Source: Gammaproteobacteria bacterium (GTDB lineage Bacteria; Pseudomonadota; Gammaproteobacteria; GCA-001735895). Taken from it: a stretch of 64,000 nucleotides of DNA. The stretch spans positions 5,758 to 69,757 of the forward strand of contig JAOTYD010000006.1 in NCBI GenBank assembly GCA_029862005.1. The letters run 5' to 3'. Below the pieces are notes generated by a model. That model was given only the letters and a program-made list of their open reading frames with translations. It did not search any database and was not told where the DNA came from. This document shows positions 4,114 to 61,650 of this stretch, in pieces. Positions within the stretch are counted from its first letter, which is position 1. Every line of letters begins with the position of its first letter. The position numbers were made by a program, and so were the translations under genes.

Positions 4114-4129
4114 ATTAGTCTCCTGCAGA

Positions 4130-13504: not shown

Positions 13505-13520
13505 AGCAACAATCGCGCCA
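13505..13520 (-). promoter_or_regulatory. Sigma-54 promoter candidate for the fliE-J operon
   Basis: On the minus strand the sequence reads TGGCGCgattgTTGCT. There is one mismatch in the -24 box and the spacing is correct. It lies about 125 nt upstream of fliE. Confidence 0.4.
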
Positions 13521-13751
13521 ACTTCCCCTGGTCCAATCCTAATTCTGGTTGAACCGCATTGCTGCCACCGACTCCTTGTATGTTGAGCCATTCCGGGGGA
13601 AAGTCTGCAAAAGTGTCGCGAGGCAGGACGCCGAGCACCAAGCTGTTCCCTGGATGGACCAACCGGCGCACGCGCCGGTTGGGAGCGTCTTTTGCGGGCT
13701 TTCCCCCGGGGTGGCAGGGGAGATACCATTGCGATGATCATGCCTTTGGTA

Positions 13752-21336: not shown

Positions 21337-21360
21337 GAGATGACTGGCATGAGATCATGC
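21337..21360 (-). terminator. Stem-loop between the flagellin and flaG genes (terminator or attenuator)
   Basis: A perfect 11-bp palindrome (GACTGGCATGA-u-CAUGCCAGUC) lies immediately 3' of the flagellin stop. The U-tract is weak. Confidence 0.4.
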
Positions 21361-21379
21361 CAGTCACTCATTCACCTGA

Positions 21380-37421: not shown

Positions 37422-38654
37422 ATGTCACTACAACAGGTTAAGATTCAAACAACAGATCTTCAAGAGGGAATGTACGTCACACAGTTGGATCGCCCATGGT
37501 TGGAAACTCCCTACAAAGTTCAGGGGTTTTTGGTTAAAAACCAAAAAGATATAGATAAACTGTTACAACACACTGAATATGTATTTATCGACACGGAACG
37601 AAGCCGGGAAAAACACAATGGATCAGCACAGCCTAGTCGATTACTGACTGAAGAAGAGAAAAAAGAATTTCTCATCGAAAGCAAACCGAGATATTACGAA
37701 GACAAGACCGATTTTAAAAAGGAATTGCCAGTTGCGCATGATAACCACGCGACTTTAAGTGCCACCGCTGAAAACGTCATGGCCGACATTGCCAATAACA
37801 AAAAACTCAACTTGCCGATTTTGAGAAAAGCGGTTAATCCAATGGTGGAAAGTGTGATTCGAAATCCTGAGGCTTTTTCGTGGCTTACCAGAATGAAATC
37901 AAAGGACGACTATACCTATAACCATTCTGTCAGCACTGCAATTTGGTCCGTGGCACTGGGCCGGCAACTTGGATTGCCGAAGCGTGATCTGCAATCTCTT
38001 GGTATGGGCGCATTATTATTCGACGTCGGAAAAATGAAGTTACCCGAAAAACTGATAAACAATCCCAATCGGTTCAACCAGGTAGAATTCAATTTGATAA
38101 AAAAACATGTTGAGTACAGCGTCGACATAGTCCAGTCGATCCCAGGTATCAACGATAACGTTGTTGAAATGGTCGTTACCCACCACGAACGCCATAATGG
38201 CGGGGGTTATCCCGGGGGCTTAAAAGGTAACAAGATTCCTCTATTTGGCAAGATAGCTGGCATCACCGATTGCTATGATGCTCTCACATCGGACCGTGTG
38301 TTTCAGTCCGCAACATCACCCCATGATGCCGTTAGAAAACTGTACGATTGGAGTAATATCGATTTTCAGGCTGAAATCGTTGAACAGTTTATTCAACTGG
38401 TGGGAGTGTATCCGGTTGGCACTATTGTTGAGCTCAGCGATGAGCGCATTGGGATAGTGGTAGCTAACCACCGAGCATTACGCTTGAGGCCCAAAGTAAT
38501 GCTCATTCTCGACAAAGACAAAGAACCATATCCCAAATTCAATGTGATCGACTTGCACTCCATTGAAACCGGAGAGGATGGAAACCCACTGAATATTCTG
38601 AAAAGTATTGATCCTGGTTTGTATGGGATTGATCCTCGAGAATTTTATCTGTAA
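37422..38654 (+). CDS. HD-GYP domain c-di-GMP phosphodiesterase with an N-terminal DUF3391-like region
   Basis: A 410-aa protein. HD (…LFDVGK…) and HHERHNGGGYPGG (GYP) motifs are present. Confidence 0.85.
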   Translation: MSLQQVKIQTTDLQEGMYVTQLDRPWLETPYKVQGFLVKNQKDIDKLLQHTEYVFIDTERSREKHNGSAQPSRLLTEEEKKEFLIESKPRYYEDKTDFKKELPVAHDNHATLSATAENVMADIANNKKLNLPILRKAVNPMVESVIRNPEAFSWLTRMKSKDDYTYNHSVSTAIWSVALGRQLGLPKRDLQSLGMGALLFDVGKMKLPEKLINNPNRFNQVEFNLIKKHVEYSVDIVQSIPGINDNVVEMVVTHHERHNGGGYPGGLKGNKIPLFGKIAGITDCYDALTSDRVFQSATSPHDAVRKLYDWSNIDFQAEIVEQFIQLVGVYPVGTIVELSDERIGIVVANHRALRLRPKVMLILDKDKEPYPKFNVIDLHSIETGEDGNPLNILKSIDPGLYGIDPREFYL

Positions 38655-38662
38655 TCAAGATA

Positions 38663-39967
38663 ATGCCTGAATTTCCCGACAATATTGGTGGCAGAGAGTC
38701 GCTAATTACACAACTGGATGGATTTGTCACAAATCACAAAGCCCAATCAAAGTGCTTTGCACTGTTACTGATCAATATTAAAAATTTTCGACGTTTCAAT
38801 ATGAAGTATGGGTATATGGTAGCGGACCTGGTACTTAGCGAATTTGCTGCCTGTTTGGCAGATTTAACGCGCTCTCAGGATTACGTTGCTCGAGTCGGAA
38901 ATGCCGAGTTCGCTTTGCTATTACCCGCGGTCTTAAATGAAGGCCACGCTAGTCTTGCTGCGATAAAAATTATTGAAAAGCTAAAAGAACCGTTAATGGT
39001 CGGAGAAGATGAGTTTCAGATTCGTGCCGATATTGGGATCGCCCTTTATCCCCAGCATGCTGATGATAGTCAAATGCTTTTCGGTAATGCGGAGTTGGCA
39101 TTGAATGATGCGGGCAATTGTTCAGAGTCCTACGCCATCTATTCGGACGAAGATAACACGATCACTACCTTTGACTGGGATATCGAAGCCGATTTACAAA
39201 AAGCAATTGAAAAAGATCAATTCGAACTTTTTTTCCAGCCCCAAGTATATTTGAGTAACGGGCAGCTTTATGGTGCCGAGGCACTAATACGTTGGAAAAA
39301 CGGGAGTAAAGGATTTATTCGACCCGACCTATTTATACCGGTGGCGGAAAAAAGCGGGCAAATTAACGAGATAACAAAGTGGACCTTGAATGCAGCGTTA
39401 TGGTTTCGTAAATCCTGGTCTAAGGAAATGGATTCGTTAAGTTTAGCGGTCAATATTTCGACAAATATGCTCAGCGACCCCGATTTTGCTGACATGGTAC
39501 GTGGAGCAGTTAGTATTTACGCGGTTGAGTACGAACAATTGACCTTAGAGATCACAGAAAGTGCGCTGGTTGAAGATATGTCTTCCAGTTTCGACACACT
39601 GAATGAACTGAAAGCACTAGGGATCAATATTTCAATAGACGATTTCGGAACAGGATATTCATCGATGGCATATTTCAAAAACATTCCAGCCGACGAATTG
39701 AAAATTGATCAAACATTCATTCGATACATGCTGGAAAACTCAATGGATCAGCATATCGTGCAGACAATTATTCAGATGGCCAAAGGATTTGATCTTACGG
39801 TTGTCGCGGAAGGCATAGAAGATCAGAAAACCTTTGATATGTTATGTGATCTGGAGTGCGACATCGCGCAGGGATATCATCTCGCGAAACCCATGCCGGG
39901 TGATAGTTTCATAGAGTGGATCGATTGCTATACCGCTAACAGGCAAACCGTCGGCAAGCTCAGCTAG
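38663..39967 (+). CDS. GGDEF(degenerate)-EAL domain protein, a likely c-di-GMP phosphodiesterase
   Basis: A 434-aa protein. The GGDEF site is degenerate (RVGNAEF). The EAL domain is intact (EALIRW…DDFGTGYSS…). It starts 8 nt after the HD-GYP stop. Confidence 0.85.
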   Translation: MPEFPDNIGGRESLITQLDGFVTNHKAQSKCFALLLINIKNFRRFNMKYGYMVADLVLSEFAACLADLTRSQDYVARVGNAEFALLLPAVLNEGHASLAAIKIIEKLKEPLMVGEDEFQIRADIGIALYPQHADDSQMLFGNAELALNDAGNCSESYAIYSDEDNTITTFDWDIEADLQKAIEKDQFELFFQPQVYLSNGQLYGAEALIRWKNGSKGFIRPDLFIPVAEKSGQINEITKWTLNAALWFRKSWSKEMDSLSLAVNISTNMLSDPDFADMVRGAVSIYAVEYEQLTLEITESALVEDMSSSFDTLNELKALGINISIDDFGTGYSSMAYFKNIPADELKIDQTFIRYMLENSMDQHIVQTIIQMAKGFDLTVVAEGIEDQKTFDMLCDLECDIAQGYHLAKPMPGDSFIEWIDCYTANRQTVGKLS

Positions 39968-40057
39968 GGATCGACACTGTTGAGACGATATCAACCAAGG
40001 TAGGTAAGTGTGCGATCCAGCTTTTGATCAGATAATTTTTTGAATCGAGGTTTTGCT

Positions 40058-40170
40058 TCGGGTCGGTTATTGTCGCTGATATATTGAGTCTGAGGGGCAG
40101 CTTTCTCCAAATCCGACGCTGAAATGTGTGGCCCGAGCTTCTGAGTTCGGCCACAAGCGGACCCTTGTCA
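40058..40170 (+). repeat. Intergenic repeat copy A of a degenerate ~110-bp family
   Basis: Shares the blocks GGTCGGTTATTGTCGCTGA…GGCAGCTTTCTC…GACGCTGAAA…CTTCTGAGTTCGGCCACAAGCGGAC with copies B, C and E. Confidence 0.6.
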
Positions 40171-40209
40171 CTTCGCATTATGGCTGAGGTATAATGGTTA
40201 CAAGTTTCA

Positions 40210-40647
40210 TTGTTTCTCGAGGATACTGCCATGAATTTTCTAAACCGAATTAATAATTCCAGCAAGTTTCTGGATGGGTATAAGGAATACAGCTACGCGT
40301 TGCTGCGGATCGTAACCGGCTACCTGTTTATATGGCATGGTACGCAAAAGCTACTGGATTTCCCCGCAGCATACCCTTGGGGAGAACCGGATCTGTTGAC
40401 GACGGTAGGCGGTGGTATCGAGATAATTGGTGGCGCACTAATATTGGTTGGCTTCTTTACTCGACCCGCCGCGTTTATCTGCAGTGGCCAAATGGCAGTC
40501 GCTTATTGGATGTTCCATGCGCCGCAGGCTAATCCAGTTTTTCCGATATTAAATGGTGGTGATTTGGCAATAATGTATTCGTTCGTTTTTCTATATATCG
40601 CATGCCGGGGTGCAGGCTGCTGGAGCATCGATTCAGCCCGTTCTTAG
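40210..40647 (+). CDS. DoxX family membrane protein
   Basis: A 145-aa product with four transmembrane helices and DoxX motifs (ALLRIVTGYLFIWHG). An alternative start is the ATG at 40231. Confidence 0.8.
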   Translation: MFLEDTAMNFLNRINNSSKFLDGYKEYSYALLRIVTGYLFIWHGTQKLLDFPAAYPWGEPDLLTTVGGGIEIIGGALILVGFFTRPAAFICSGQMAVAYWMFHAPQANPVFPILNGGDLAIMYSFVFLYIACRGAGCWSIDSARS

Positions 40648-40760
40648 GATACGGATTAGGTCCCAAAGCCTGAGCATCTGTTTTCTTGAAAGCAAACCCT
40701 CAAAAAGCTCAGGTGGGAGGCAATCTTCGGCCAGGAACCGACACTCGTTTGGATCGGTTA
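40648..40760 (+). repeat. Intergenic repeat copy D
   Basis: Reads …CTGTTTTCTTGAAAGC…CTCAAAAAGCTCAGG…CAATCTTCGGCCAGGAACCGACACTCG…GGATCGG. It aligns with copies E and F. Confidence 0.55.
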
Positions 40761-40886
40761 GGACATCCTGAACTGTCGGCATTCTTTACAGACCTCCGAA
40801 AGTTGTAAAAGTTTTTTACAATTATATGGTATGTGGAAATAGAATTTTTTATGGGAAGTTATAATAATCAACGACTTATATTTTTT

Positions 40887-40902
40887 TGGCACGATACATG
40901 CG
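40887..40902 (+). promoter_or_regulatory. Sigma-54 promoter candidate upstream of the PEP-CTERM gene
   Basis: The sequence reads TGGCACgatacATGCG, with a perfect -24 box and GC at -12. It lies about 75 nt upstream of the ATG. Confidence 0.55.
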
Positions 40903-40916
40903 TTTGTATAGTATTG

Positions 40917-40942
40917 TATAACGTTTGTAGCTAAACGTTATA
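40917..40942 (+). promoter_or_regulatory. Perfect 26-bp palindrome in the predicted leader of the PEP-CTERM gene
   Basis: The sequence reads TATAACGTTT-gtagct-AAACGTTATA. Four TTGTA direct repeats are phased around it. Confidence 0.5.
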
Positions 40943-40976
40943 TCTTGTAGAAAGCTAAAATTAAGAGATCTAATCC

Positions 40977-41585
40977 ATGAAAATATTTCGCAACAAACAG
41001 AAAAAACATCGGGCATCGCCTTCCGGGTGGAAACGATTACTGGTGGTACCTATTTTTTTGACGATGTCGGCATCGCTTCCGAATTTAGCGAATGCGATGG
41101 CTATTACTGGCTTTGGTGGGCAAATATTTGGAACGGGTGGAAACGTTGTTGTTGACATCTTGCCTGCAAGTTCTGGATACACCAACGATATCAACCTTTA
41201 TTTCGCATATCCGGACCTGTCCATTGCAACGTTCATCGGTATCGACAATAATCTGGCATCCGTCGATCTGGGGTCGTTCGCCCTCGGTACCGAACTTGTT
41301 TTCGGGATCGTTAATGATCCAGGTGATATTTTCGTGATGGGCGATGCCTCGCGTAACCCAGACAATTTAATTCACGCAAATGTATTCAACACTGTAACTG
41401 GCGCTGGTTTTGTAGAATCATGGATTGTTGGTTTTGAAGATCTCCTCGGTGGTGGTGACAATGATTTCAACGACGCCTTTATTCGGGTGAACCTAGCAGC
41501 TGCTGTTCCCGAACCATCAGTTATCGCTTTATTTGCAGCGGGTCTCCTTGGTTTAGGTTTCGCTCGCCGGAGAATGCGTAGCTAA
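40977..41585 (+). CDS. PEP-CTERM sorting-domain protein with a DUF4114-like domain; putative exosortase substrate
   Basis: A 202-aa protein with a signal peptide. The C-terminus reads VPEPSVIALFAAGLLGLGFARRRMRS, which is PEP, then a transmembrane segment, then an Arg-rich tail. The motif FEDLLGGGDNDFNDAFIRV is present. Confidence 0.85.
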   Translation: MKIFRNKQKKHRASPSGWKRLLVVPIFLTMSASLPNLANAMAITGFGGQIFGTGGNVVVDILPASSGYTNDINLYFAYPDLSIATFIGIDNNLASVDLGSFALGTELVFGIVNDPGDIFVMGDASRNPDNLIHANVFNTVTGAGFVESWIVGFEDLLGGGDNDFNDAFIRVNLAAAVPEPSVIALFAAGLLGLGFARRRMRS

Positions 41586-41610
41586 TTAAAAATAAAGCGT
41601 TACCGAATAA

Positions 41611-41636
41611 GCCATCTCAATTGAGGTGGCTTTTTT
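41611..41636 (+). terminator. Rho-independent terminator after the PEP-CTERM gene
   Basis: A GCCAUCUCAAUUGAGGUGGC hairpin is followed by UUUUUU. Confidence 0.7.
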
Positions 41637-41650
41637 ATGGGGGTCCGTTT

Positions 41651-41780
41651 AGGGTCGGTCTCTGCCGCTGAGTTTTAGGATTTCAGAGTCTGCTTTCCTG
41701 TAAGCTGACACTCAAAGTCAGAGCTTCAGCGACGTTCTTCGGCCAGGAAGAGACGCTCAGCAATGAAAAAATTGGATCGG
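41651..41780 (+). repeat. Intergenic repeat copy E
   Basis: Reads GGGTCGGTCTCTGCCGCTGAG…CTGCTTTCCTGTAAGC…CTCAAAGTCAGAG…CTTCGGCCAGGAAGAGACGCTCAG…GGATCGG. Confidence 0.6.
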
Positions 41781-41782
41781 TC

Positions 41783-41884
41783 GAAGAGGTTACCGGTGCG
41801 ATATTGTATTTGGCTTCCTCGGACTCAGGCTTCACCACAAGGATTGCTTTACCGATGGACGGTGGTGCGACAGCAGGGGGCTAA
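41783..41884 (+). pseudogene. Orphan 3' fragment of a short-chain dehydrogenase/reductase (SDR) gene
   Basis: The frame reads EEVTGAILYLASSDSGFTTRIALPMDGGATAGG*, a typical SDR C-terminus (…LFLASD.S.YITG….DGG). The upstream catalytic portion is missing. It lies directly after repeat E. Confidence 0.6.
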
Positions 41885-41959
41885 GAGTTTGGTGCGTCTC
41901 ATAGCTGGGGCGTGCAGCCAGACAATTTCACTTATCACAATTTCAATCGCTCAATAACA

Positions 41960-42040
41960 GACGCTCGTTAAGCTCAGTTAAACTTCGACAATCGGCCACA
42001 TTCGGAGCTTTCTATTTTCCGGGATGCCTGTGTCTCGCTG
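41960..42040 (+). repeat. Partial or scrambled copy (H) of the intergenic repeat family
   Basis: Contains GACGCTC…TCGGCCACA…GAGCTTTCT blocks in a different order. Confidence 0.35.
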
Positions 42041-42163
42041 TGATAGAATGCATTCGGACTGTAAAAGCACCTGGTAGGTGCGCAGTTTCTACATCAATAC
42101 TGCATTGATGGACATTCATAAATACGGGTGTTTCCACACCCTACAAAAATTGAGGAGCTAAAT

Positions 42164-43144
42164 ATGAATTTATTACGTGGACGATGTCTCAGAACATTAC
42201 TTGTCGCTACCTGCTTTACCCTGTTTTCTGTTTCAGGGGTATTTGCGGCGGATAGCAACAAACCGATTCGAATCCCCTTGAAGAATTGGTCCAGCCAACT
42301 TGTTATGGCTCACGTAATCGGTGGCATGTTTGAAAGCATGGGCAACAATGTTGAATATGTACCGGTAGACAATCAAACCAGTTTCGAAGCCGTACGCAAT
42401 GGCGACATCACACTCGTCCATGAAGTCTGGCAATCCACCATGCAAAACGCTTATTACAATGCGATGGAAAAAGGCGGATTGATCGACGCGGGCACACACG
42501 AAGCTGCCACGCTGGAAGAAATGGGCGTACCGACCTGGGTAATTGAAAAGAACCTGTGCCCGGGCCTGCCGAATTGGGAAGCTCTGAAAAATTGCCACGA
42601 AGTTTTCGCAACCCCGGATTCCGGTGGCAAAGGACGCTGGTTGGAAGGCCCGCAAAGCTGGCACGGTGACGTAATGCCGAATCGAGTCAAAGGGCTGGGA
42701 TTGGATGATAACTGGACGGTTAAGTTTGCCGGTGGTGCCGATGCACTGTGGACCGAACTCAAGGCCGCTGAGAAAGAAGGCCGGGGAACTATCATATTCA
42801 ACTGGTCGCCAAACTTTACCGATGCGTCCGGATTTACCTTTATTGAATTCCCGCCGTACTTCGATGGTTGCCGAATTGCCGATGGTGGCACGCTAGAAAC
42901 AACTGGTTGTGGTTCACCACCGGGTTGGCTGAAAAAAGGTGCACACTACAAGTTTGCCAAGACGCACCCGAAAGCCTATGCAGCCTTCACCCGCCTCTCA
43001 TTTACCACACCACAGATCGGTCAAATGGCCGCACTGGTTGACGTTGACGGATTAACCGTTGAAGAAGCCGGCAAGAAATGGCTGGCCGATAACGAAGCCA
43101 TCTGGAAGCCGTGGACCGCAACAACCCTGGGGCATGGGAACTAA
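42164..43144 (+). CDS. Periplasmic substrate-binding protein of the glycine betaine/choline-binding (OpuAC/ProX-like) type. The start is revised to the ATG at 42164.
   Basis: A signal peptide (MNLLRGRCLRTLLVATCFTLFSVSGVFA) follows the RBS GAGGAG. The mature part has an OpuAC-like fold. No cognate permease or ATPase genes are adjacent. Confidence 0.7.
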   Translation: MNLLRGRCLRTLLVATCFTLFSVSGVFAADSNKPIRIPLKNWSSQLVMAHVIGGMFESMGNNVEYVPVDNQTSFEAVRNGDITLVHEVWQSTMQNAYYNAMEKGGLIDAGTHEAATLEEMGVPTWVIEKNLCPGLPNWEALKNCHEVFATPDSGGKGRWLEGPQSWHGDVMPNRVKGLGLDDNWTVKFAGGADALWTELKAAEKEGRGTIIFNWSPNFTDASGFTFIEFPPYFDGCRIADGGTLETTGCGSPPGWLKKGAHYKFAKTHPKAYAAFTRLSFTTPQIGQMAALVDVDGLTVEEAGKKWLADNEAIWKPWTATTLGHGN

Positions 43145-43540
43145 GCTAACTATCTGTACAGGTGGTTGACGTTAAAAAAGGCGTTATCCGTGAAAATTCA
43201 CTTGGCGCCCCCTCCGTTATAGGTGGGGGCACTGATTGCTATCTCTAATCACGCCAGATGTTTTCAATCATTTCGGTTTTCTCCGAAGATGATTGGATTT
43301 GCGGCGTTTCAAATTGAATGTTTGAGACTGACCGAGAATCGTTGTCGCGATTGGTATTTTGCATCACGGAGTATCCCAATTCACAACTACCGACCACATT
43401 ACGTTCACGAGCCGTATGGTATTAATCAAAGGACGAGAATTAATAACAGTAGGTGAATAAACAAAGGTACTAACGAAAATAATCACTTTGAGATAAGTGA
43501 TTCGCCATAGGGTAAATCCTTATATATCAGGTGTCTGAAA

Positions 43541-43650
43541 AGGATCGTAAATTGTCGCTGAATTGTCGAGATTAAGCGGCAGCTTTCTCGTGAGCAGACG
43601 CTGAAAAATACTAATCGGGCTTCAGAGAACGGCCAGGAACGGTCACTGGA
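43541..43650 (+). repeat. Intergenic repeat copy B
   Basis: Reads GGATCGTAAATTGTCGCTGAAT…GGCAGCTTTCTCG…GACGCTGAAAAA…CTTCAGAGAACGGCCAGGAACGGTC. Confidence 0.6.
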
Positions 43651-43795
43651 TTCCAACCTGTATCACTCAAGATATTTACAACATCTCAGAGTTGGTACCT
43701 GTTTCGATAATGCATATTGAGTGGTGATGGCCTAAATAAAGATTACTTTTACCTGTAGACTCATGCTTGAGTTCACCTATTGGTAGGAGAGTAAT

Positions 43796-44656
43796 ATGAG
43801 TGATATTACGGTTATCGGTCTTGGAGTGATGGGTTCGGCACTAGCACAAACGCTCCTACAATCCGGATACAAGGTTACCGTATGGAATCGGACCCCCAAT
43901 AAAGCTGCTGATCTGGCAGATCGAGGAGCGATTACAGCAGTTTCATGCTCCGAAGCTATAGCCGCCAGCCCATTGATTGTTATCTGCATCAAATCCCACA
44001 GCGATACCCGCCAACTACTCGAGTCCGCAGAAAACCTGAAATCCAAAAATATAATCGAGCTAAGCACCGGCAGTGCGCCCGAGGCTGAGTCACTCGCAGA
44101 ATGGGTACGTAGCGAAGGGGCTGGATGCTTAATCGGAATGATTTGCACTTTTCCGCGTGATATCGGTAACGAGGATTCGACGATTGTTACCGTGGGAGAC
44201 GAGGCTCTATGGGAACAATCCCAAAAAATGTTGAAGACCCTTGCCGGGAAATCAACTTACATCGGAGATAATATCGGATCTCTGGCGATTCTTTATAGCG
44301 CGTTGTTTTTACCGCGTCAGGGATTTATGTTCGGGATGATATACGGCGCTCTACTTTGTAAAAAAGCCAGCCTGTCTATGCAAACCTATGTTGAGCTAAT
44401 GCCGCTTACAATCAAGGTAGTGAATGACTACTACGACGTTTTTGCCTCTTCCGTGCTTTCCGACAATTATTCAGACCCACAAGCATCCATAGACACGTAC
44501 ATAGCCGCTTTTGCAGATACGCTTGAGTCGTTTCGTAATCACGATGTTAACGATGAACTGCCTAAATTGATGGCTAGATTGCTCGATCAGGGTGCTAATG
44601 CTGGTCTGGGTGATAAACAGATAACCTCTCTGATTAATGTGTTGAGCAATGAATAA
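43796..44656 (+). CDS. NAD(P)-binding oxidoreductase, 6-phosphogluconate/3-hydroxyisobutyrate dehydrogenase-like
   Basis: A 286-aa protein with the Rossmann motif ITVIGLGVMGSALAQTL and a dehydrogenase C-terminal domain. Confidence 0.75.
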   Translation: MSDITVIGLGVMGSALAQTLLQSGYKVTVWNRTPNKAADLADRGAITAVSCSEAIAASPLIVICIKSHSDTRQLLESAENLKSKNIIELSTGSAPEAESLAEWVRSEGAGCLIGMICTFPRDIGNEDSTIVTVGDEALWEQSQKMLKTLAGKSTYIGDNIGSLAILYSALFLPRQGFMFGMIYGALLCKKASLSMQTYVELMPLTIKVVNDYYDVFASSVLSDNYSDPQASIDTYIAAFADTLESFRNHDVNDELPKLMARLLDQGANAGLGDKQITSLINVLSNE

Positions 44657-44659
44657 CCC

Positions 44660-44772
44660 AGGCATGCCAAAATCACTCTAGGCGAATCCCCTAAGCGGAC
44701 TCTCGTAAAACCTTGTTGGGGGACAATCTTCGGCCAGAATCGGACGCTCAAAAAAACAAATGCTAGATCGGA
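44660..44772 (+). repeat. Intergenic repeat copy F
   Basis: Reads …TCTCGTAAAACCTTGTTGGGGGACAATCTTCGGCCAGAATCGGACGCTC…AGATCGG. Confidence 0.55.
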
Positions 44773-44838
44773 TATGCGAACCTTAAACGATATTTGTAAC
44801 CAACTGTTAAAATTCGATAGTAGAATAATGAAACTCGA

Positions 44839-45366
44839 TTGTTGATCGAAGATTATAATTGGCGAGTCGGTGAAGTGATGAGAAAAATGGAGCGACATGC
44901 GCGATTTAGGAGGTTTCTAAGCGATATCTCCGTTCACACACCATTTACCAAAATGGTGATTCTATTAGCTGTGCTGTGGCTAACGTTTTCTGCCGGTGTG
45001 TATCTCGCCGAGCGAGGTATAGAAGCAACATCTATCGATTCTTATGGGAAAGCATTGTATTGGGGGATAGCCGCCTTTTCTACAGCGGGAATCGCCGATG
45101 CACCGATCTCTGGTGCAGCGCAAGTGGTTGGTGGTCTTTGGATAGTCCTTGGTTCGGTTTTGTTCTTCGGGACCATCGTGGCGACCGTTACGACCTATTT
45201 TATGAGACCAATGCAGCGCCCACATAGGAAGATCATTGATACGATAGAATATAACCTCGAGCAATTAGATAACCTGACGATCGACGAACTCGATTTATTA
45301 AGAGAAACAACTGACACGCTAATTGTGCATGTCGAACGCTTAAAGAAAAAACAATCAAGAGAATAA
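44839..45366 (+). CDS. Two-TM ion-channel-like (Ion_trans_2 / K+-channel-like) protein with a non-canonical pore sequence
   Basis: A 175-aa product with two transmembrane helices flanking a pore-helix-like segment (YWGIAAFSTAGIADAP). The start could be an internal Met at 44878. Confidence 0.55.
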   Translation: MLIEDYNWRVGEVMRKMERHARFRRFLSDISVHTPFTKMVILLAVLWLTFSAGVYLAERGIEATSIDSYGKALYWGIAAFSTAGIADAPISGAAQVVGGLWIVLGSVLFFGTIVATVTTYFMRPMQRPHRKIIDTIEYNLEQLDNLTIDELDLLRETTDTLIVHVERLKKKQSRE

Positions 45367-45439
45367 TCGAAATCTAACGATGGTTTAGATGGTTTGTATT
45401 ATTTTTGGCGGTTCAAGCGGGATTTTCCAAGCCTACCGC

Positions 45440-45570
45440 GAATGATGGAAATGGGTTGTTAGCTCCCCCTAAAATCACAATTCTGAACGCCGGCTTTCCC
45501 GATAGCGGGCCCTCAATTTCAGAACTTCAGAGGCGACCTTGCGCCAGAAGCGGACCCTTAGGGCGGCATT
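45440..45570 (+). repeat. Intergenic repeat copy G
   Basis: Reads …TTTCAGAACTTCAGAGGCGACCTTGCGCCAGAAGCGGACCC…. Confidence 0.45.
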
Positions 45571-45669
45571 AAGTTAACTGTCAATATAATTCACATTTTA
45601 TAAAAAGACTCTGTTTGATTTCCTGAGTTACAATCACAATCCGAAAATCAAACAAAAATCGAAAGTGAC

Positions 45670-46998
45670 ATGGTCAATGAGTCTACGGAAACGGTCAGTA
45701 CAGAAGAAAATCTAGATCCCATTGCTATCAGCGAGGAGCAGTTCAATCGCGCATCGTATCACGTCAAAGGTCTTAAAAGAGGCTTGGTGGAGTTCCTGAA
45801 AAAACCCAAGCGCGTGAATATTATAAATTTCCCGGTCGAGATGGACGATGAGAGCGTGCAAAGTTTCCAGGGCTTCCGCGTACAGCACAATCGCGTATTC
45901 GGTCCCGGCAAAGGCGGAATCCGATATCACCCGGATGTCACGATGGAAGACGTCATTTCGCTGGCCAAGCTGATGACCTGGAAGTGCGCGCTGGTTAATG
46001 TCCCCTTCGGAGGCGCCAAGGGTGGCCTCGTTTGCGATCCCAAGAAGCTGAGTGAAAAGGAACTGCGTCGTATCACACGTCGTTATACCTCCGAGCTGTA
46101 CGACGAGCTTGGGCCACATCAGGACATCCCCGCGCCCGACCTCTATACCAATGAGCAGACCATGGCCTGGATATACGACACCTATGATGTTTTGCATCCG
46201 GGTTTCAACAACCGGCCGGTGGTGACCGGCAAACCTATCGAAATGGGTGGTTCCTATGGCCGCTACGAGGCGACTGGCAACGGTTGCCTGTTCTCCACGC
46301 AACGCTTTTTGTCCAAGGCGCTAATCCCGGATCATCAGGATGTTACAGGAATGCGCATCGCCATCCAGGGTTTTGGTGACGTCGGTGCAGTCGCAGCGAA
46401 CGCTTTTCATCGTCAGGGCGCAAAGATTATCGCGGTCAGTGACAGTAAGGGCGGAATCTATAGCGAAGCGGGATTGAATCCGGAGGATGTAGAAGGTTTC
46501 AAGGGTCGGCAGGGAACCGTGGTCGGATTGAAAGATACCATGACCATCACCAACGAGGAACTACTAGAACTGGAGTGCGACATTCTGTTGCCGGCTGCGC
46601 TCGGAAACCAGATTCATGCAGGCAACGCGTCCAATATCAAGGCCAGTCTGGTCGTTGAGGGCGCAAACAATCCGACTACGCCGCTGGCCGACCGGATTTT
46701 ACAGGAACGTGGAATTCATGTGTTGCCAGACATCCTCGTTAACGCCGGTGGTGTCACGGTCAGCTATTACGAATGGGTGCAGAACCAAGTTAACGAGCAA
46801 TGGGACTACGATACCACCACCGAAAAGATGCATTCCAAAATTTATGCAGCCGTGGACACGGTGTTTGACCGCTGGCAGTCGTTCGTCGTCGGTGAAGAAT
46901 CAACGCGGAATCACACGCCTGATTTTCGCACAATCGCCCTGATGATCGCCATTGAACGTGTCGCGCATGCGACCTTGTTACGCGGAATATGGCCATGA
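45670..46998 (+). CDS. gdh: Glu/Leu/Phe/Val-family amino-acid dehydrogenase, a likely glutamate dehydrogenase
   Basis: A 442-aa protein. The catalytic Lys region is KGGIRYHPDV…VPFGGAKGG, and the NAD(P) motif is GFGDVGA. Confidence 0.88.
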   Translation: MVNESTETVSTEENLDPIAISEEQFNRASYHVKGLKRGLVEFLKKPKRVNIINFPVEMDDESVQSFQGFRVQHNRVFGPGKGGIRYHPDVTMEDVISLAKLMTWKCALVNVPFGGAKGGLVCDPKKLSEKELRRITRRYTSELYDELGPHQDIPAPDLYTNEQTMAWIYDTYDVLHPGFNNRPVVTGKPIEMGGSYGRYEATGNGCLFSTQRFLSKALIPDHQDVTGMRIAIQGFGDVGAVAANAFHRQGAKIIAVSDSKGGIYSEAGLNPEDVEGFKGRQGTVVGLKDTMTITNEELLELECDILLPAALGNQIHAGNASNIKASLVVEGANNPTTPLADRILQERGIHVLPDILVNAGGVTVSYYEWVQNQVNEQWDYDTTTEKMHSKIYAAVDTVFDRWQSFVVGEESTRNHTPDFRTIALMIAIERVAHATLLRGIWP

Positions 46999-47023
46999 AT
47001 CAATAGGACGGGTGTCCATTTTG

Positions 47024-47125
47024 GGTCGTAAATCGTCGCTGAATAACATAGCTTGAGCGTCTCCTTTCTCGTACGCAGATTCTCATAAAAAATCATAGCG
47101 GGAGGTAATATTCGGCCGATAGCTG
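47024..47125 (+). repeat. Intergenic repeat copy C
   Basis: Reads GGGTCGTAAATCGTCGCTGAATAAC…CTCCTTTCTCGTACGCAGA…TATTCGGCCGATAGC. Confidence 0.55.
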
Positions 47126-47177
47126 CTATTTGTTTTATCTGGAGATGACTATTTGATAGTGCAGGTTGTCAGCCTGA

Positions 47178-48152
47178 TTACCGAGTAACCTTTATGTTGC
47201 TGATCAACTCAAATTTATCGGGGATATTGCCATCAATGTCTTTGAAGTAACAGTTTGCATGGTTTGGTTTGCCATTCACAAAGAATGTGCAAAAGAGAGC
47301 ACCAAAGTTGGCGCCCTGATCAAAAGTATAGACAGATGCCCACCACGGATCATTGTGACGATATTGTCTGCTTATGCTTAGACCCCCCAATCCTGAGACG
47401 AAGGCGAAGCTTTTTCCCTCTTCGATTACCATCTTATTCGCGGTCGAAGCTATGCGCTGCTTTTTAAAGCTGCTCATCAGATGTGTCCGTGAATATGAGT
47501 GTGTGTGACCCGTAGCCACGATTGCTCCCCCCTCGCGGCAGACTCGAAAGGGCTTCCAACCTACCTGGCTACCTTTCACCCCAACCTGCATCTTTTTTTG
47601 AGACTTGTGCCAGGAACAAATCCTCCATATGGAGTCAGTTTGAGCTAACTGTTTGCGTATATAAGCAACGTGATCGGGATTGTTCTTCGTGATGCTTGTT
47701 CCAATGCCCGAAAGAATGAAGAACAATCCTCGAAAAGTGCATACAGATTGCACGCCAAGATCACCACCGCAATTTATCTCGTCTATTCTGTCCAAACGGG
47801 CTTGCAACTTATCTTGATAGCCATCAGGTGAGTACCAAAGAATATCGTGGTTGCCGATGGATGCCAGATACGGGAAGTCCTCCCCAAGAATGTCTGTTAT
47901 AAAGTTATCCCATCTAGTGGGATTGTTTTCGTAATCCAGATCCCCCTGATGCAACACTAAATCAGCACCCTCATCCTTGATCAATCGAAGTACCGCCCTG
48001 GAGTCACTGTTTATCCCCTGATCACCAATAAATGCGACGGTTACGGACTGCAATGATGCCAGGTTCTGAGAGCTGGCCCCGTTGAGCAAAGCGCAGTCGA
48101 CAAAGACTACTGCCAGTATAAAACAGACTGCGGCCGTTACTCGATTTCTCAT
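47178..48152 (-). CDS. Secreted calcineurin-like metallophosphoesterase, purple-acid-phosphatase-like
   Basis: A 324-aa protein with a signal peptide and GDQG…GDLDY…GNHD motifs. Confidence 0.75.
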   Translation of the reverse strand: MRNRVTAAVCFILAVVFVDCALLNGASSQNLASLQSVTVAFIGDQGINSDSRAVLRLIKDEGADLVLHQGDLDYENNPTRWDNFITDILGEDFPYLASIGNHDILWYSPDGYQDKLQARLDRIDEINCGGDLGVQSVCTFRGLFFILSGIGTSITKNNPDHVAYIRKQLAQTDSIWRICSWHKSQKKMQVGVKGSQVGWKPFRVCREGGAIVATGHTHSYSRTHLMSSFKKQRIASTANKMVIEEGKSFAFVSGLGGLSISRQYRHNDPWWASVYTFDQGANFGALFCTFFVNGKPNHANCYFKDIDGNIPDKFELISNIKVTR

Positions 48153-50916: not shown

Positions 50917-53900
50917 CTATCCCTGCTTTTCAAGCCACTTGACCAGGTGGGAAAATGGTAACGGACGCGAAACGATGAATCCCTGCACCTGATCGCAGCC
51001 AATCTCGGCGACAAGGTCCCAGTCCTGCTGGTCCTCAACACCCTCGGCGACCACCTTCATATTGAGCTTTTTTGCCAGCAGTACGCTTGACTCGAGAATC
51101 GCACGCGCCGAGGCTTCCTGCGCTGCGCCATGCACGAATGCTCGATCAATTTTAAACTCGGTAAACGGGATGCGTTGCAGCTGCTCCATCGATGAATAAC
51201 CCGTGCCAAAATCGTCGATCGACAGGTTAAACCGTTTCAGCGACAGTCGGCTCAGGATATCGAGCGCGACCGACAGATGCTCCATCAAGCGGCTCTCGGT
51301 GATTTCGAAGGAAATGCTCGAGGCCTCCAGACCGGATGTTTCCAGCATTGTTGAAACCCGGTCCGGCCATTCGAGGTCGGTCAGTGAATCGACCGACAGG
51401 TTGATCGCAATGTTGAGATTGTAACCCAGCGATTTCAATTCTGCTGCATACTCCAGCACCTTGACCAGGACAACATCGGTCAATTCCTTTATCAGCCCGT
51501 TTTCTTCGGCCATGGTGATGAAAGCGTTGGGCTTGATCAATCCCTTGATCGGATGATTCCAGCGAACCAGTGCCTCAACACCGACAACCTGGCCGGATTT
51601 GATATCGACCTTGGGTTGGAAATAGGTGTCCAGTTGATCGTTAGTAATCGCATTTTCCAGCTCCATCAGTGGAGCGGGTCCGACCAGCATCATCGTGCCT
51701 TCCTGGCGAATCTGGTCGAGCGAATCAAGCAGTTCGCTTAGCTTGGCAGGCGCTGCCGGTTTTTCCAGTACGCCGAGCACATGCAAATCGTGTTCGATGG
51801 CAAGCTTCTCCACCGTCTTCAGGATACGCAAATCTTCACCACTGGTTAAAATCAGCGAACCCGAGAATTTCCTTTTAGCCAGGTGACGAATGAACTCAAC
51901 GCCATCCATTTCCGGCATGTTCAGATCGCATATCACAACATCGACACCGTCGCCCTTCTGCTCCAGGATCTCCTGTGCGGCCGGGCCTGACATCGCATTC
52001 AGTACCCCTGAAATACCCAGATCATTCAGCATTACCGTCATCACCCGGTGCATGATGTAGTCATCATCTACCAGCAGCAACTTGATACTGAACTGGGTGA
52101 CATCTTCATCTTCAGCAGGCAGCTGCGGGCTGAATTCAGGTTCCACAACCGGTGCCGGGCTCTCAGCTATCGGTTCATCCAGATATTCTTCAATAAAGGC
52201 TGTCGCCTCTGCGGCATGCTGACGCAATGGAGGAATCATATTTTCGATCTGCGGCCAGGCCTCATCGGTCGCCTTTGATTCCAGCTGCTGGCAGGCATGT
52301 GCCATGGCCATTGCGCCGAGGCTGCGTGACGATGATTTCAACTTGTGCGCGTATTCGGCTACCTGTTCGCTGTTCTTCCAGGCAAAGGCCTGCTGAATGT
52401 TTTCAACCTCGTTTACAAGCGCCTTATTATAGGATTGCAGCAGGCGCCTGTGCAGGTCGGGTTTATTCCCGGTGGATTGCACCAGTACGCTCAGATCGAT
52501 TGCCTCGTCTACCCGCAAGTCAATAGAATCCTGGCCATTCCCCACGTCTTCCACGATCACATTGTCCGGCGCCCACTTATCAAGTACGTTGCGTAGATCA
52601 TCGAGTTCCACCGGCTTGGGAATAACGTCATCCACCCCGACCGCGAAACATTTTTCGACATCCGCTTCCAGTGCATTGGCAGTAATCGCGATGACCGGCG
52701 CCCGCAAACCCTGGTCATTTTCCTGCTGCCGGATTTCCTGCACCAGTTCGTAGCCGTTCATTTCCGGCATGCGCATATCGGTTAACAACAGGTCGTAGTG
52801 ACCCTGTTGCCAGAGTTCAAGTGCCAGTGCACCGTTAGCGACATAGTCAGCGCGATAACCCAGAATATTCAATTGTGCCGCCATCAACTCCTGGTTAATC
52901 AGGTTATCCTCGGCAACAAGTATGCGCGACCTGTCACCTTTGGATTGATCGTCTTGCGATTTAGCTGACTCCGGAAAATCAACCACGCTGCCGATGGGCG
53001 TTGACGGTGCCTGGTCAAGCGTTACCCAGAAAGTGCTGCCCTCGCCCGGTTTACTGTTGATCTCAAGTTCGCCCTTCATCAGATCCACCAGCTGCCTGGT
53101 AATCACGAGCCCGATACCGGAACCTTCAACACCGCTGAACTCCGCGCCCAGACGATTGAAAGGCTGGAACAGCTCCTTGAGTTTTCTGGGAGAGATGCCT
53201 ACTCCGGTATCGCGAATACCGATTCGTAATGATTTGTCCTTTCCGAATTCGGAAACAACACTGACGGTACCTTTCTCACCGTTATACTTGATCGCATTCG
53301 TCAACAGATTCAGAAATACCTGCTTGAGCCGAATCGAGTCAGCAAAGACGTTTATGCGCTCAAATTGCGTCGCGTCGAATTCCATGCGTATATTGCGCTC
53401 GTATGCGAGCGGCTCAACCCAGTGAACGCTATCGCTTAAAACCTGAAACAGCGATACCGGCTCCAGCGTTATATCGCTTTCACCTGCTTCGATGCGTGAT
53501 AGGTCAAGTATCTGGTCGATCAACGACATCAGGTGTTTACCGGCGCGATTTATTTCGTTGGCGTTGGCGAGATGTTGCTCATTCAGGCCACGGTCATATT
53601 CAAACAACTGTGAAAATCCGAGAATCGCGTTCAACGGGGTGCGCAGCTCGTGACTCATGCTGGACAGAAACTCGGACTTCGCCTGGTTGGCCTGCTCCGC
53701 CTGAAGCTTGGCCTCGATTAATCGTGCTTCGGCCTCTTTACGATTGGTAATATTTTCGTGGATCGTGATGACGCGCTCCCAGGTATCTTCGTAACCTCGC
53801 ACCAGGGTTACAATGGAACGGGTTTCGAAATAAGACCCGTCGAGACGCGAGTCGACCCGTTCCGCACTGTAAAGCTTTTCGTCACTGGCAAGCGCAGCGA

Positions 53901-54717
53901 TTTCCTTTGCGTAGTACTCCACCCACTGCGCATCCCACCAGTCGTCAACATCTGCTTCGCCAGCCAGGAACTCCTCTTTCGAGTCGGCCTCATGCATCCG
54001 TAACAATGCCTCGTTAACATCGGTAATACGTGTCTGCTCAACCAGTTCCTTCAGGAGTCTTGGATTTTTATAAAAGTACTCTTCGAGGTTTTCGATCCCC
54101 TGGAAGCGGAGCTTGTCGACTACAGTCTTGATTTCCGAATAGTCTTCTTCCTGAACGCCCAGCGGCATATGGGTAAATAACGAGCTGAATCGTTCTTCGC
54201 TCTTTTTCAGTGCCTGAATCGCCGTTTCCGATTCAGAAACATCCTGAACCATGCCAAAGCTTGACTCCAGTTTGCCCTTGTCATCGAACACGCCCTGCTG
54301 GTATTCACGCAAGTGTCGAGTCTCTCCCTTTTTGGTGACAACCCGGTAATCGAACACATGACACTTGCCGGGCTGCAGCAGTTCTGCAGAATTGAGATTC
54401 TCGAGATAATGCGCCTTGTCTTCAGGATGGATAATCGATTGGATCTGTTCCGGATTACGGTAAAGCTTTTTAAGTTCGCCCTGATTGATACCTAGAACAT
54501 CGGCCATTTCGGCGGAGTAACTAATGGGTTTGTTGGCTTTTTCGTCCCATTCCCAGATGCCGAGGTTGAGCATCTTTGACAGTTCCTGGCTTCGTAAATC
54601 GCGGGATTCGATCTGTGCCCGGGCCTCATCCAGCTGTGCCTGCAACTCGGCAATCTCGTCACGTAAGGACTGCTCGGTTGAACTGGCTTTGGTGGTTTTT
54701 TTGGTTTTTGCTGTCAA
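50917..54717 (-). CDS. Cytoplasmic hybrid sensor histidine kinase with a C-terminal EAL phosphodiesterase domain (PAS-PAS-HisKA-HATPase-REC-Hpt-REC-EAL)
   Basis: A 1266-aa protein. The H-box is SHELRTPLNAILGF, the G-box is GSGIGL, and the Hpt motif is HKLKSSS. There are two REC domains (LLTDMRMPEMNGYEL; VICDLNMPEMDGVEF). The EAL domain reads EALVRWNHP…DDFGTGYSS. No transmembrane segment is present. Confidence 0.85.
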   Translation of the reverse strand: MTAKTKKTTKASSTEQSLRDEIAELQAQLDEARAQIESRDLRSQELSKMLNLGIWEWDEKANKPISYSAEMADVLGINQGELKKLYRNPEQIQSIIHPEDKAHYLENLNSAELLQPGKCHVFDYRVVTKKGETRHLREYQQGVFDDKGKLESSFGMVQDVSESETAIQALKKSEERFSSLFTHMPLGVQEEDYSEIKTVVDKLRFQGIENLEEYFYKNPRLLKELVEQTRITDVNEALLRMHEADSKEEFLAGEADVDDWWDAQWVEYYAKEIAALASDEKLYSAERVDSRLDGSYFETRSIVTLVRGYEDTWERVITIHENITNRKEAEARLIEAKLQAEQANQAKSEFLSSMSHELRTPLNAILGFSQLFEYDRGLNEQHLANANEINRAGKHLMSLIDQILDLSRIEAGESDITLEPVSLFQVLSDSVHWVEPLAYERNIRMEFDATQFERINVFADSIRLKQVFLNLLTNAIKYNGEKGTVSVVSEFGKDKSLRIGIRDTGVGISPRKLKELFQPFNRLGAEFSGVEGSGIGLVITRQLVDLMKGELEINSKPGEGSTFWVTLDQAPSTPIGSVVDFPESAKSQDDQSKGDRSRILVAEDNLINQELMAAQLNILGYRADYVANGALALELWQQGHYDLLLTDMRMPEMNGYELVQEIRQQENDQGLRAPVIAITANALEADVEKCFAVGVDDVIPKPVELDDLRNVLDKWAPDNVIVEDVGNGQDSIDLRVDEAIDLSVLVQSTGNKPDLHRRLLQSYNKALVNEVENIQQAFAWKNSEQVAEYAHKLKSSSRSLGAMAMAHACQQLESKATDEAWPQIENMIPPLRQHAAEATAFIEEYLDEPIAESPAPVVEPEFSPQLPAEDEDVTQFSIKLLLVDDDYIMHRVMTVMLNDLGISGVLNAMSGPAAQEILEQKGDGVDVVICDLNMPEMDGVEFIRHLAKRKFSGSLILTSGEDLRILKTVEKLAIEHDLHVLGVLEKPAAPAKLSELLDSLDQIRQEGTMMLVGPAPLMELENAITNDQLDTYFQPKVDIKSGQVVGVEALVRWNHPIKGLIKPNAFITMAEENGLIKELTDVVLVKVLEYAAELKSLGYNLNIAINLSVDSLTDLEWPDRVSTMLETSGLEASSISFEITESRLMEHLSVALDILSRLSLKRFNLSIDDFGTGYSSMEQLQRIPFTEFKIDRAFVHGAAQEASARAILESSVLLAKKLNMKVVAEGVEDQQDWDLVAEIGCDQVQGFIVSRPLPFSHLVKWLEKQG

Positions 54718-60354: not shown

Positions 60355-61650
60355 ATGCATCACCCAACACGCTTACTCGTCTACGGCTTTGCAATCGTCA
60401 TCCTGATGATGGTTACGCTGGCCTTCATCGCGTTCTACGCAACCAGCGATACTAATGGCAACGTAAACCAGCAGGTTTCGCAGCAGCTCGAGAAAATAAA
60501 CCTGATAAACGAGCTGTCGACGATCATCCAGCACCGCACCCGTTTCATGCAATCGATGCTGCTGCATGACGAAGAATTTATCGAGGCCGAGTCATGGCCG
60601 AATTTCAATCGCCTGGAAGGTGCCTATACCGAAACCCGGACACGGTTGTTACCCTTGCTGGCACCTCGCGAGCGCGAAATCATGGAGGCGATCGACCGAC
60701 TTGATCGTGACATCAACGACTTGAATCGACAGGTATCGGTGCTGTTTCTGAACGGCAGTCGTGACGAAGCCAGTAAGATCCTGCTGCGGGAAGTGTTGCC
60801 CAAAACAGCGCCTTTGCTCTCACACCTGTCGGAACTCACCCAGGCGCAACGCATGGATGTACAAAAAGCGCTGCTCATGGCCAGCAGTGACACTGAAAAA
60901 AGTCGCACCCAGATCGTTATTTTTTCGATTATTGCAGTTTTGATCAGCCTGGCTGTGACCTGCATCGCAATTTGGTATGGTCGCAAGCTATCGGGCCAAT
61001 TGCAGAATATGAACGATTACCTGGAGCAGAAAATATATGAACGAACCGAATCGTTGCTCGATACACAGAAGGAGTTGCTCGAAGATAACAACGAGTTAAC
61101 GCGCATGGCTCTAACCGACAGTTTGACCGGGCTGTCCAATCGCACCAGCATGAACCAGATTCTGCACAAGGAATTTGCCCGGTTTGAACGCCACGATCAA
61201 CGTTTCGGTATCATCATGCTGGATATCGATAAATTCAAGAATATTAACGATAGTTATGGCCACGACACCGGAGACAAGGTATTGAGACAGCTGGCAACCA
61301 TTTTCGAAAACGCGATACGTGCCAGCGATTTCGTCGCACGCTGGGGTGGTGAAGAATTCCTGATTTGCTGTACCACGATCGAAGAGGTGGATTTGCTGCC
61401 AATCGCCGAGACCATAAGAAAGCTCGTCGCAAGTACCACCTTCGAGACCGCCGGACAGATCACCGCCAGCCTCGGATGTGCGGCGATTGTGAAAGGCGAA
61501 AGCATCGGCGAACTGATCAAGCGTTCCGACGTTGCGCTTTACGAAGCAAAAAATAACGGCCGCAATCAAACAGTTGTTTCTGAATTCACCGATATCTCGC
61601 TGATCCAGGACCCGGACGATAACCTGGACACGGATTCCCACGACATTTGA
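60355..61650 (+). CDS. Membrane-anchored GGDEF diguanylate cyclase
   Basis: A 431-aa protein with transmembrane segments flanking a periplasmic/sensor region and a coiled coil. The GGDEF site is intact (RWGGEEF). Confidence 0.85.
   Translation: MHHPTRLLVYGFAIVILMMVTLAFIAFYATSDTNGNVNQQVSQQLEKINLINELSTIIQHRTRFMQSMLLHDEEFIEAESWPNFNRLEGAYTETRTRLLPLLAPREREIMEAIDRLDRDINDLNRQVSVLFLNGSRDEASKILLREVLPKTAPLLSHLSELTQAQRMDVQKALLMASSDTEKSRTQIVIFSIIAVLISLAVTCIAIWYGRKLSGQLQNMNDYLEQKIYERTESLLDTQKELLEDNNELTRMALTDSLTGLSNRTSMNQILHKEFARFERHDQRFGIIMLDIDKFKNINDSYGHDTGDKVLRQLATIFENAIRASDFVARWGGEEFLICCTTIEEVDLLPIAETIRKLVASTTFETAGQITASLGCAAIVKGESIGELIKRSDVALYEAKNNGRNQTVVSEFTDISLIQDPDDNLDTDSHDI

Follow-up and report, generated by a model that had tools for sequence, protein, structure and literature searches.

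A predicted PEP-CTERM box with a lineage-specific palindromic insertion upstream of a DUF4114 gene of an uncultured gammaproteobacterium

The DUF4114/PEP-CTERM gene considered here lies at 40977–41585 on the plus strand of a 64,000-nucleotide stretch of contig JAOTYD010000006.1, and this whole stretch is referred to below as the window. The gene encodes a predicted secreted protein of 202 amino acids with a signal peptide, a DUF4114 domain (PF13448, 36.4 bits, above the Pfam gathering score) and a C-terminal PEP-CTERM signal (PF07589, 26.1 bits against a gathering score of 20.7; residues 176–198 of 202). Its tail, in which VPEPS is followed by a hydrophobic segment and by RRRMRS at the stop codon, is the sole C-terminus of PEP-CTERM type that a regular-expression search returned in the window, and 186 homologues of the protein were detected, most of them annotated with DUF4114 and PEP-CTERM. 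On the upstream side a gap of 329 nt separates the gene from a DoxX gene. A Shine-Dalgarno-like AAGAGA is present at 40963–40968 (+), 8 nt 5' of the ATG, and is aligned with AGGAG of a homologous locus (L002, described below), while 24 nt past the stop codon an intrinsic terminator at 41609–41637 (+), composed of a 10-bp stem with five G-C pairs and a following TTTTTT, closes a single-gene unit. As argued below, the DNA at 40774–40976 is very probably a standard proteobacterial PEP-CTERM box driving this unit, and a conspicuous palindrome in the leader stands outside the conserved machinery and is most likely neutral.

The core of the promoter is the sigma-54 −24/−12 element TGGCACGATACATGCG at 40887–40902 (+), in which GG (40888–9) and GC (40900–1) are separated by exactly ten nucleotides, in agreement with the original prediction; its assignment as motif 2 of the PEP-CTERM box is based on conservation in homologous loci. 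From the usual distance of 11–13 nt past the −12 GC the transcription start is predicted at 40913 (±2 nt, plus strand). The most diagnostic part of the region is located further upstream and was overlooked originally, namely two copies of motif 1 that are predicted to be the sites of a PrsR-type enhancer-binding protein: the distal copy TGTCGGCATTCTTTACA at 40774–40790 (+), centred at about −131 from the predicted start, and the proximal copy TGTAAAAGTTTTTTACA at 40804–40820 (+), a near-perfect dyad centred at about −101. Within the 64-kb window the pattern TGT-N8-TTTACA is found at this locus only (three matches including the reverse reading against 0.4 expected), and the composite TTTACA-N50-80-TGGC-N8-TGC has a single match where 0.06 are expected. 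An IHF-consensus site AATCAACGACTTA (WATCAANNNNTTR) at 40866–40878 (+), between the dyads and the promoter and presumably bound by IHF (integration host factor), was likewise overlooked; it is one of eight matches to this consensus in the window against 2.5 expected. The addition of the two activator sites strengthens the sigma-54 reading.

The upstream DNA was compared with that of homologous loci from other samples and contexts, which in the order of protein identity are L002 (84 %), L001 (80 %), L003 (68 %), L004, L006, L007 with two paralogues, designated L007a and L007b, and L018 (53–59 %), L016 (54 %), L025 from a Gemmataceae metagenome-assembled genome (MAG; 45 %), and L024 from a Rubrivivax MAG (37 %, with 76 % GC). 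The gene neighbours vary in this set: an insertion sequence (IS) transposase and a glycosyltransferase are found at L001, the rpoN-hpf-ptsN cluster at L006 and L018, and acetyltransferases at L016, so that the conserved upstream sequence is not simply shared synteny. By phylogenetic footprinting the blocks conserved across 37–84 % protein identity are the dyads and GG-N10-GC. The 19-mer TTTTTGGCACGATACATGC is the same in the window, L001, and L002 within diverged flanks, and GG-N10-GC is kept in nine of the ten box-bearing loci, including also L003, L004, L006, L007a, L007b, and L024, the exception being L018 with GT at −12. Allowing for small deviations from TGT-N8-TTTACA, the dyad has its 3' end 64 nt 5' of the TGG in L001, L002, L003, L006, L007a, and L018, 63 nt in the Rubrivivax locus L024, and 66 nt in the window, which gives an overall range of 63–66 nt in eight loci. 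A second copy of the dyad, ending 95–96 nt 5' of the TGG and thus about 30 nt above the first one, is present in the window, L001, L002, L003, and L007b. By eye, the IHF consensus can also be recognised in L001 as AATCAAAAGCTTA, in L003 on the reverse strand, and in L002 with one mismatch. Upstream of the planctomycete homologue no motif 1 dyad was found, which agrees with the report that motif 1 is lacking in non-proteobacteria (Haft et al. 2006, BMC Biol 4:29; PMC1569441).

These data also bear on the nature of the polymerase. A promoter scan reports for the same DNA a sigma-70-type pair, TTGGCA-17-TAGTAT at 40886–40914, with 9 of 12 matches, so that the gene would be transcribed by sigma-70 polymerase and the likeness to a sigma-54 element would be a coincidence. 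Three such pairs are found in 1.4 kb against 2.2 expected, however, and conservation is lacking for the −10 hexamer, which reads TTAAGT in L001 and GAATTT in L002, whereas the GG and GC persist in relatives of high GC as well as of high AT content; in addition, the fixed 64-nt distance to the dyad is typical of enhancer-dependent promoters. Transcription from the sigma-70 pair is accordingly regarded by us as extremely improbable, and a sigma-54 promoter under the control of a PrsK/PrsR-type system, as originally proposed, is the best reading, because both the element and the activator sites are kept in homologous loci down to 37 % protein identity and at 76 % GC.

The 19-mer TTTTTGGCACGATACATGC was also looked for in a 596-Gb genome collection that excluded the source genome, where only four scattered matches were obtained, approximately the number expected by chance and none of them with motif 1. 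They belong to Methylobacillus, Oligoflexaceae, Saccharibacteria, and Bacteroidales. Three are apparently intergenic, in L012 (6133–6151, Methylobacillus caricis), L013 (6560–6578, Oligoflexaceae MAG), and L015 (4752–4770, Bacteroidales MAG), and these may be either unrelated genuine sigma-54 promoters or chance matches.

The use of sigma-54 by the organism is indicated by the left 30 kb of the window, which is occupied by a flagellar cluster with FleQ-, FleS-, and FleR-type regulators. The best three sigma-54 matches in the window (0–1 mismatch), located on the minus strand at 5697–5712, 7698–7713, and 13505–13520, sit just 5' of fliL, fliK, and fliE and served as internal positive controls. 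Together with the FleQ/FleR-type activators these sites show that sigma-54 is employed and fit a FleQ/FleR-type flagellar hierarchy. Genes of cyclic di-GMP (c-di-GMP) signalling are dense around the PEP-CTERM gene (37422–39967, 50917–54717, and 60355–61650) and encode an HD-GYP-type protein (HD_5/DUF3391), a GGDEF-EAL protein, a 1266-amino-acid hybrid kinase/receiver/EAL protein, and a GGDEF protein.

In Pseudomonas FleQ controls exopolysaccharide genes in response to c-di-GMP. It is therefore conceivable that the activator of the PEP-CTERM gene is the FleQ-like (16350–17765) or the FleR-like (13752–15077) protein rather than PrsR, which would tie the surface protein to the switch between motility and biofilm, and both candidates are encoded in the window while c-di-GMP enzymes flank the locus. 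This assignment is nevertheless very unlikely, since no TGT-N8-TTTACA dyad lies close to the sigma-54 promoters of the flagellar genes in the window, the box is conserved at loci with no flagellar genes nearby, and the phylogenetic profile of the motif was tied to PrsR, PrsK, and PrsT by Haft et al. (PMC1569441). A PrsR-type activator thus remains the preferred candidate.

The second subject of the original prediction was the leader. The inverted repeat TATAACGTTT-GTAGCT-AAACGTTATA at 40917–40942 (+) reads as it was described there, with perfect 10-bp arms, each of which includes the self-complementary AACGTT, and a non-palindromic spacer of 6 nt. Perfect inverted repeats with 10-bp arms and loops of 0–10 nt are found in three places of the window against 0.63 expected. 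The others are CCAACCGGCG-CACG-CGCCGGTTGG at 13659–13682 and TGACTGGCAT-GAGATC-ATGCCAGTCA at 21341–21366, which are probably terminator hairpins because they lie just 3' of the fleR-like and flagellin genes of the minus strand. In three other assemblies from different samples the whole region is 100 % identical, the palindrome included; hence the palindrome is real, and since the four assemblies are identical throughout, its preservation says nothing about selection.

The origin of the palindrome is suggested by a global alignment of the leader with that of L001, where a single uninterrupted 23-nt gap separates AGTATTGT from TATCTKGTAGAAAGC. This gap corresponds to a 23-nt lineage-specific insertion, ATAACGTTTGTAGCTAAACGTTA at 40918–40940 (+), which creates the palindrome. 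In the upstream alignment both are absent from L001, L002, and L003, the three closest homologous loci, and the insertion extends the distance from TGG to ATG to 90 nt in the window against 68 nt (L001), 60 nt (L002), and 51 nt (L003). Within the insertion CGTTTGTA is a direct repeat of 40901–40908, which suggests a local duplication or template switch as its source. A striking perfect repeat can therefore arise from a single recent indel, and support from a comparison between loci is needed before it is taken for a regulatory element.

The same insertion affects the four TTGTA pentamers of the leader (40904–40949, plus strand), which start at 40904, 40914, 40925, and 40945. The spacings of 10, 11, and 20 nt are as proposed for a helical-turn arrangement, while the statement that the pentamers surround the palindrome does not hold for two of them, which overlap it: the copy at 40925 is inside the insertion and that at 40914 straddles its left edge. 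The cluster is unique in the window, yet 3.2 % of composition-matched shuffles of the leader hold some 5-mer four times, and the pattern is not conserved in L001–L003 in the upstream alignment. According to the aligned sequences, the palindrome and the phased TTGTA repeats are thus outside the conserved box machinery and derive from an insertion carried by this lineage only, and the idea that they form an operator or regulon motif is not sustained.

At the RNA level the palindrome is predicted to fold as a 12-bp AU-rich hairpin from about +4 to +31 with approximately −10.3 kcal/mol, beginning about 3 nt past the predicted 5' end of the transcript. In the predicted folds the Shine-Dalgarno sequence is outside this hairpin. 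A terminator or attenuator is also not indicated, since the scan gives no call for the palindrome, no T-run is found, and the AU-rich stem is followed by CTTGTAGA. In Rfam no leader match was obtained at E ≤ 1 and none at the gathering score over 39900–47300, and no shared leader hairpin was found in the relatives, whose leaders behave like shuffles (z scores of −1.1 to +1.3).

Several mRNAs of Escherichia coli, for example that of ompA, are stabilised by 5' stem-loops. By analogy, the palindrome may act in RNA as a 5'-terminal stem-loop that shields the PEP-CTERM mRNA from 5'-end-dependent decay and so raises the output of a tightly gated promoter. The window hairpin resembles the ompA type in being few nucleotides away from the predicted 5' end and in leaving the ribosome-binding site free; it dominates the structure of the leader (z = −2.6 over the first 45 nt), and L002 has an unrelated short perfect hairpin at its predicted 5' end. 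It differs from that type in its AU-rich stem, in being not conserved in relatives, and in that the start site is a predicted one and the function putative. The whole-leader z score is just −1.1 to −1.2, the leaders of the relatives are no more structured than shuffles, and a single recent insertion with no independent recurrence is concerned. On balance such a protective role is unlikely, although it deserves some weight. The hairpin of L002 is the perfect palindrome AATTTGGCT-TAG-AGCCAAATT at about 322–345, near the predicted 5' end of the transcript, and it raises the possibility that leader hairpins turn over in this gene family, for which the folding statistics are not significant.

At the DNA level the palindrome could be an operator, where a dimeric repressor bound to TATAACGTTT-N6-AAACGTTATA at +5 to +30 would block elongation or the open complex and thereby add a second input. 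The excess of perfect 10-bp-arm repeats mentioned above, the position just 3' of the promoter, the AACGTT in each arm, and a neighbourhood rich in c-di-GMP signalling genes speak for it. Nonetheless, the palindrome is absent from the homologous loci compared and no second copy was found in the window, no candidate regulator gene is adjacent, and a single 23-nt indel needs no selection to be explained. The recurrence at other loci, proposed originally as a check, was looked for further in metagenome contigs, where the arms with any 6-nt loop were matched at four loci with other loops, in unrelated contexts, and with no sigma-54 site; however, this exact-pattern scan did not return two known carriers of the palindrome, L020 and L021 (JGI contigs Ga0224503_10019340 and Ga0224513_10055064), so that its negative result is only weak to moderate evidence and the public arm matches are uninformative. 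With these points together the operator is distinctly improbable. An unrelated metagenome contig, L008 (VAPC010431024.1), has the fully self-complementary 26-mer TATAACGTTTAACGTTAAACGTTATA, with the 10-bp arms of the window palindrome, at 1721–1746 and again 5 kb away at 6726–6751.

A broader view, in which the insertion is a recent regulatory innovation on a standard box, either as a 5' hairpin or as an operator with two AACGTT cores and half-site-like TTGTA resembling the 5' half of the activator dyad (TTGTAAAA), is also considered improbable. If true, the insertion would provide this lineage with one more means of controlling a surface protein gated by sigma-54, perhaps tied to the nearby c-di-GMP genes. 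Most likely the insertion is neutral, or at most it provides a modest stabilisation of the message through the predicted hairpin.

Some observations weigh against the interpretation of the region as a PEP-CTERM box with a neutral palindrome and have to be considered together. First, the sigma-54 core TGGCACGATACATGCG has two mismatches to TGGCAC-N5-TTGCW and was missed by a scan allowing at most one, and sites with at most two mismatches number 43 in the window against 36.4 expected. Such matches occur at chance frequency, so the "near-consensus" quality claimed for the element is not significant alone, and the sigma-54 case therefore rests on the comparison between loci. In this respect the promoter itself was correctly proposed, being supported by conservation and architecture, while its closeness to the consensus was not a valid argument. 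Second, the IHF site is near the core promoter, with its centre at about −41. Third, PrsR (TIGR02915), PrsK (TIGR02916), PrsT (TIGR02917), and exosortase EpsH/XrtA were not found among the window open reading frames of at least 150 amino acids or in the 10 kb beyond the right edge, and with the PrsR model, whose cut-off is 502.6, the two sigma-54 activators of the flagellar FleQ/FleR set obtain 331 and 345 bits. The original remark that exosortase and prsK/prsR are missing from the window thus holds for all open reading frames of this size, and such a lack is expected because PEP-CTERM units are scattered single genes, which is the rule even far from the exosortase (PMC1569441). Fourth, perfect repeats of the palindrome type exceed the chance expectation in the window, and this one is perfectly preserved in four assemblies.

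With these reservations the sigma-54 reading is supported by conservation and architecture rather than by consensus fit, and the following course of events may be proposed. A PrsR-type sigma-54 activator, controlled by PrsK and encoded elsewhere in the genome, would bind as dimers to the two 17-bp dyads near −131 and −101. An IHF-type bend at about −41 would then bring it to the sigma-54 RNA polymerase held at GG (−24) and GC (−12) of 40887–40902, and ATP hydrolysis by the activator would open the promoter, with transcription starting near 40913. The resulting monocistronic mRNA would end at the terminator at 41609–41637, and the DUF4114 protein, with its signal peptide and PEP-CTERM tail, would be exported, and an exosortase, likewise encoded elsewhere, would process it. 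In this scheme the identity of the activator, the use of IHF, and the start site are putative.

The surroundings of the unit vary from locus to locus. In the relatives of about 55 % identity the DUF4114/PEP-CTERM gene adjoins a conserved DUF5924/DUF2914 gene, a CN-hydrolase gene, and yhdP (L006 1–4561, L018 1–5564, and L004/L005/L007), and a second paralogue, partial or complete, is present in tandem in L004/L005 and L007. In L006 and L018 the gene is 3–5 kb 3' of a rpoN-hpf-ptsN-rapZ-ptsO cluster, and in a related contig rpoN is 3 kb from the homologous gene. In L001 an IS-type DDE transposase gene (3184–4620) lies about 200 bp 5' of the distal motif 1 copy, which places the unit there in a variable region.

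Seven successive intergenic gaps at 40–47 kb of the window, where most of the genes are on the plus strand, contain one copy each of a dispersed repeat of about 100 nt (core ...GCTTTCTCGTAAGCAGACRCTCAAAA...CAATCTTCGGCCAGGAACGGACACTC), at about 40050–40175, 40655–40750, 41640–41760, 43585–43700, 44680–44760, 45450–45570, and 47010–47125. This repeat flanks the PEP-CTERM unit on both sides and was also found in L001 (8518–8580 and about 4790–4815) and L002 (1–52). For this repeat no stable fold, no Rfam match, no attC core by eye, and no integrase nearby were found. The reading of the 40–47 kb region as an integron with cassettes was rejected, since no integrase is encoded among the open reading frames, no core sites are visible by eye, and the repeats fold like shuffles (z scores of −0.5 to +0.6). 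Given that scattered units are the rule and that the region is not an integron, the original description of the gene as an orphan substrate acquired with a cassette adds little. What looks like a pseudogene fragment is found just 3' of the unit, at 41775–41884 (+), where the C-terminal end of a short-chain dehydrogenase (…IGSVEEVTGAILYLASSDSGFTTRIALPMDGGATAGG*) is left and the N-terminal part is missing; its match to adh_short_C2 is weak and does not reach the gathering score (E = 4e-4, profile positions 198–236 of 236). A duplication of the short-chain dehydrogenase gene as a target flanking the unit was also considered and rejected, since the downstream match is weak and the dispersed repeat accounts better for the similarity on the upstream side.

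The value of these data is first of all in annotation: the locus can be described as a PEP-CTERM box unit of PrsR/RpoN type, and on this basis the uncultured gammaproteobacterium is predicted to encode PrsK/PrsR and an exosortase in other parts of its genome and to produce the DUF4114 protein along with exopolysaccharide. The near-fixed distance between enhancer and promoter, 63–66 nt in hosts ranging from AT-rich to 76 % GC, adds a modest but clear piece of evidence on face-of-helix constraints in this regulon.

The general design is familiar from promoters of NtrC/NifA type, where glnAp2 has a pair of NtrC sites, near −140 and −108, at a distance of about 32 bp, NifA binds the upstream activator sequence TGT-N10-ACA, and looping is assisted by IHF. 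The window locus is similar in its dyads about 30 bp apart (−131 and −101), their TGT...ACA form, the IHF-consensus site in between, and the −24/−12 core, whereas its dyad has the form TGT-N11-ACA (17 nt) and its target is a surface or secreted protein and not nitrogen metabolism; this is therefore a likeness in the mode of working and not membership.

The closest correspondence is with the box described in Haft et al. study (PMC1569441) upstream of 99 of 167 proteobacterial PEP-CTERM genes. That box begins with motif 1, a 17-nt element with TTTACA at its 3' end that in some cases is repeated; after a further 62.8 ± 10.6 nt (range 32–92) comes motif 2, a 17-nt sigma-54 −24/−12 element, from which 71 ± 38.5 nt lead to the start codon; the genes form single-gene operons with more than 200 nt of non-coding DNA upstream, and the phylogenetic profile of the motif matches that of PrsR (an NtrC-family activator), PrsK (a kinase), and PrsT. 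In the window motif 1 is present twice, the match to the published motif being by description (17 nt with TTTACA at the 3' end), the spacer is 66 nt (63–64 nt in seven homologous loci), and the distance from motif 2 to the ATG is 74 nt; the GG/GC element, the upstream gap of 329 nt, the one-gene unit, the PEP-CTERM product, and a host placed in Gammaproteobacteria by the source annotation complete the agreement. The differences are the extra 23-nt palindromic insertion of the leader, which is absent from the described box, and the spacer, which is nearly fixed at 63–66 nt in the DUF4114 subfamily and variable in the published box.

An experimental precedent is pepA of Aquincola tertiaricarbonis RN12, which was found to be RpoN1-dependent by means of a rpoN1 mutant and has a mapped start behind TGGCAC/CTGCTT with a predicted enhancer upstream (PMC9850573). 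The window locus shares with it a PEP-CTERM gene, the TGGCAC-type −24 and TGC −12 elements, and a predicted upstream enhancer, while pepA differs in its protein family, which is PepA and not DUF4114, in its betaproteobacterial host, and in that no leader palindrome was reported. Since the layout agrees numerically with the box of Haft et al. and RpoN dependence has its precedent in Aquincola, the locus is a new instance of a known cis-regulatory class, an ordinary example of an already described box, in which the new feature is the insertion confined to this lineage.

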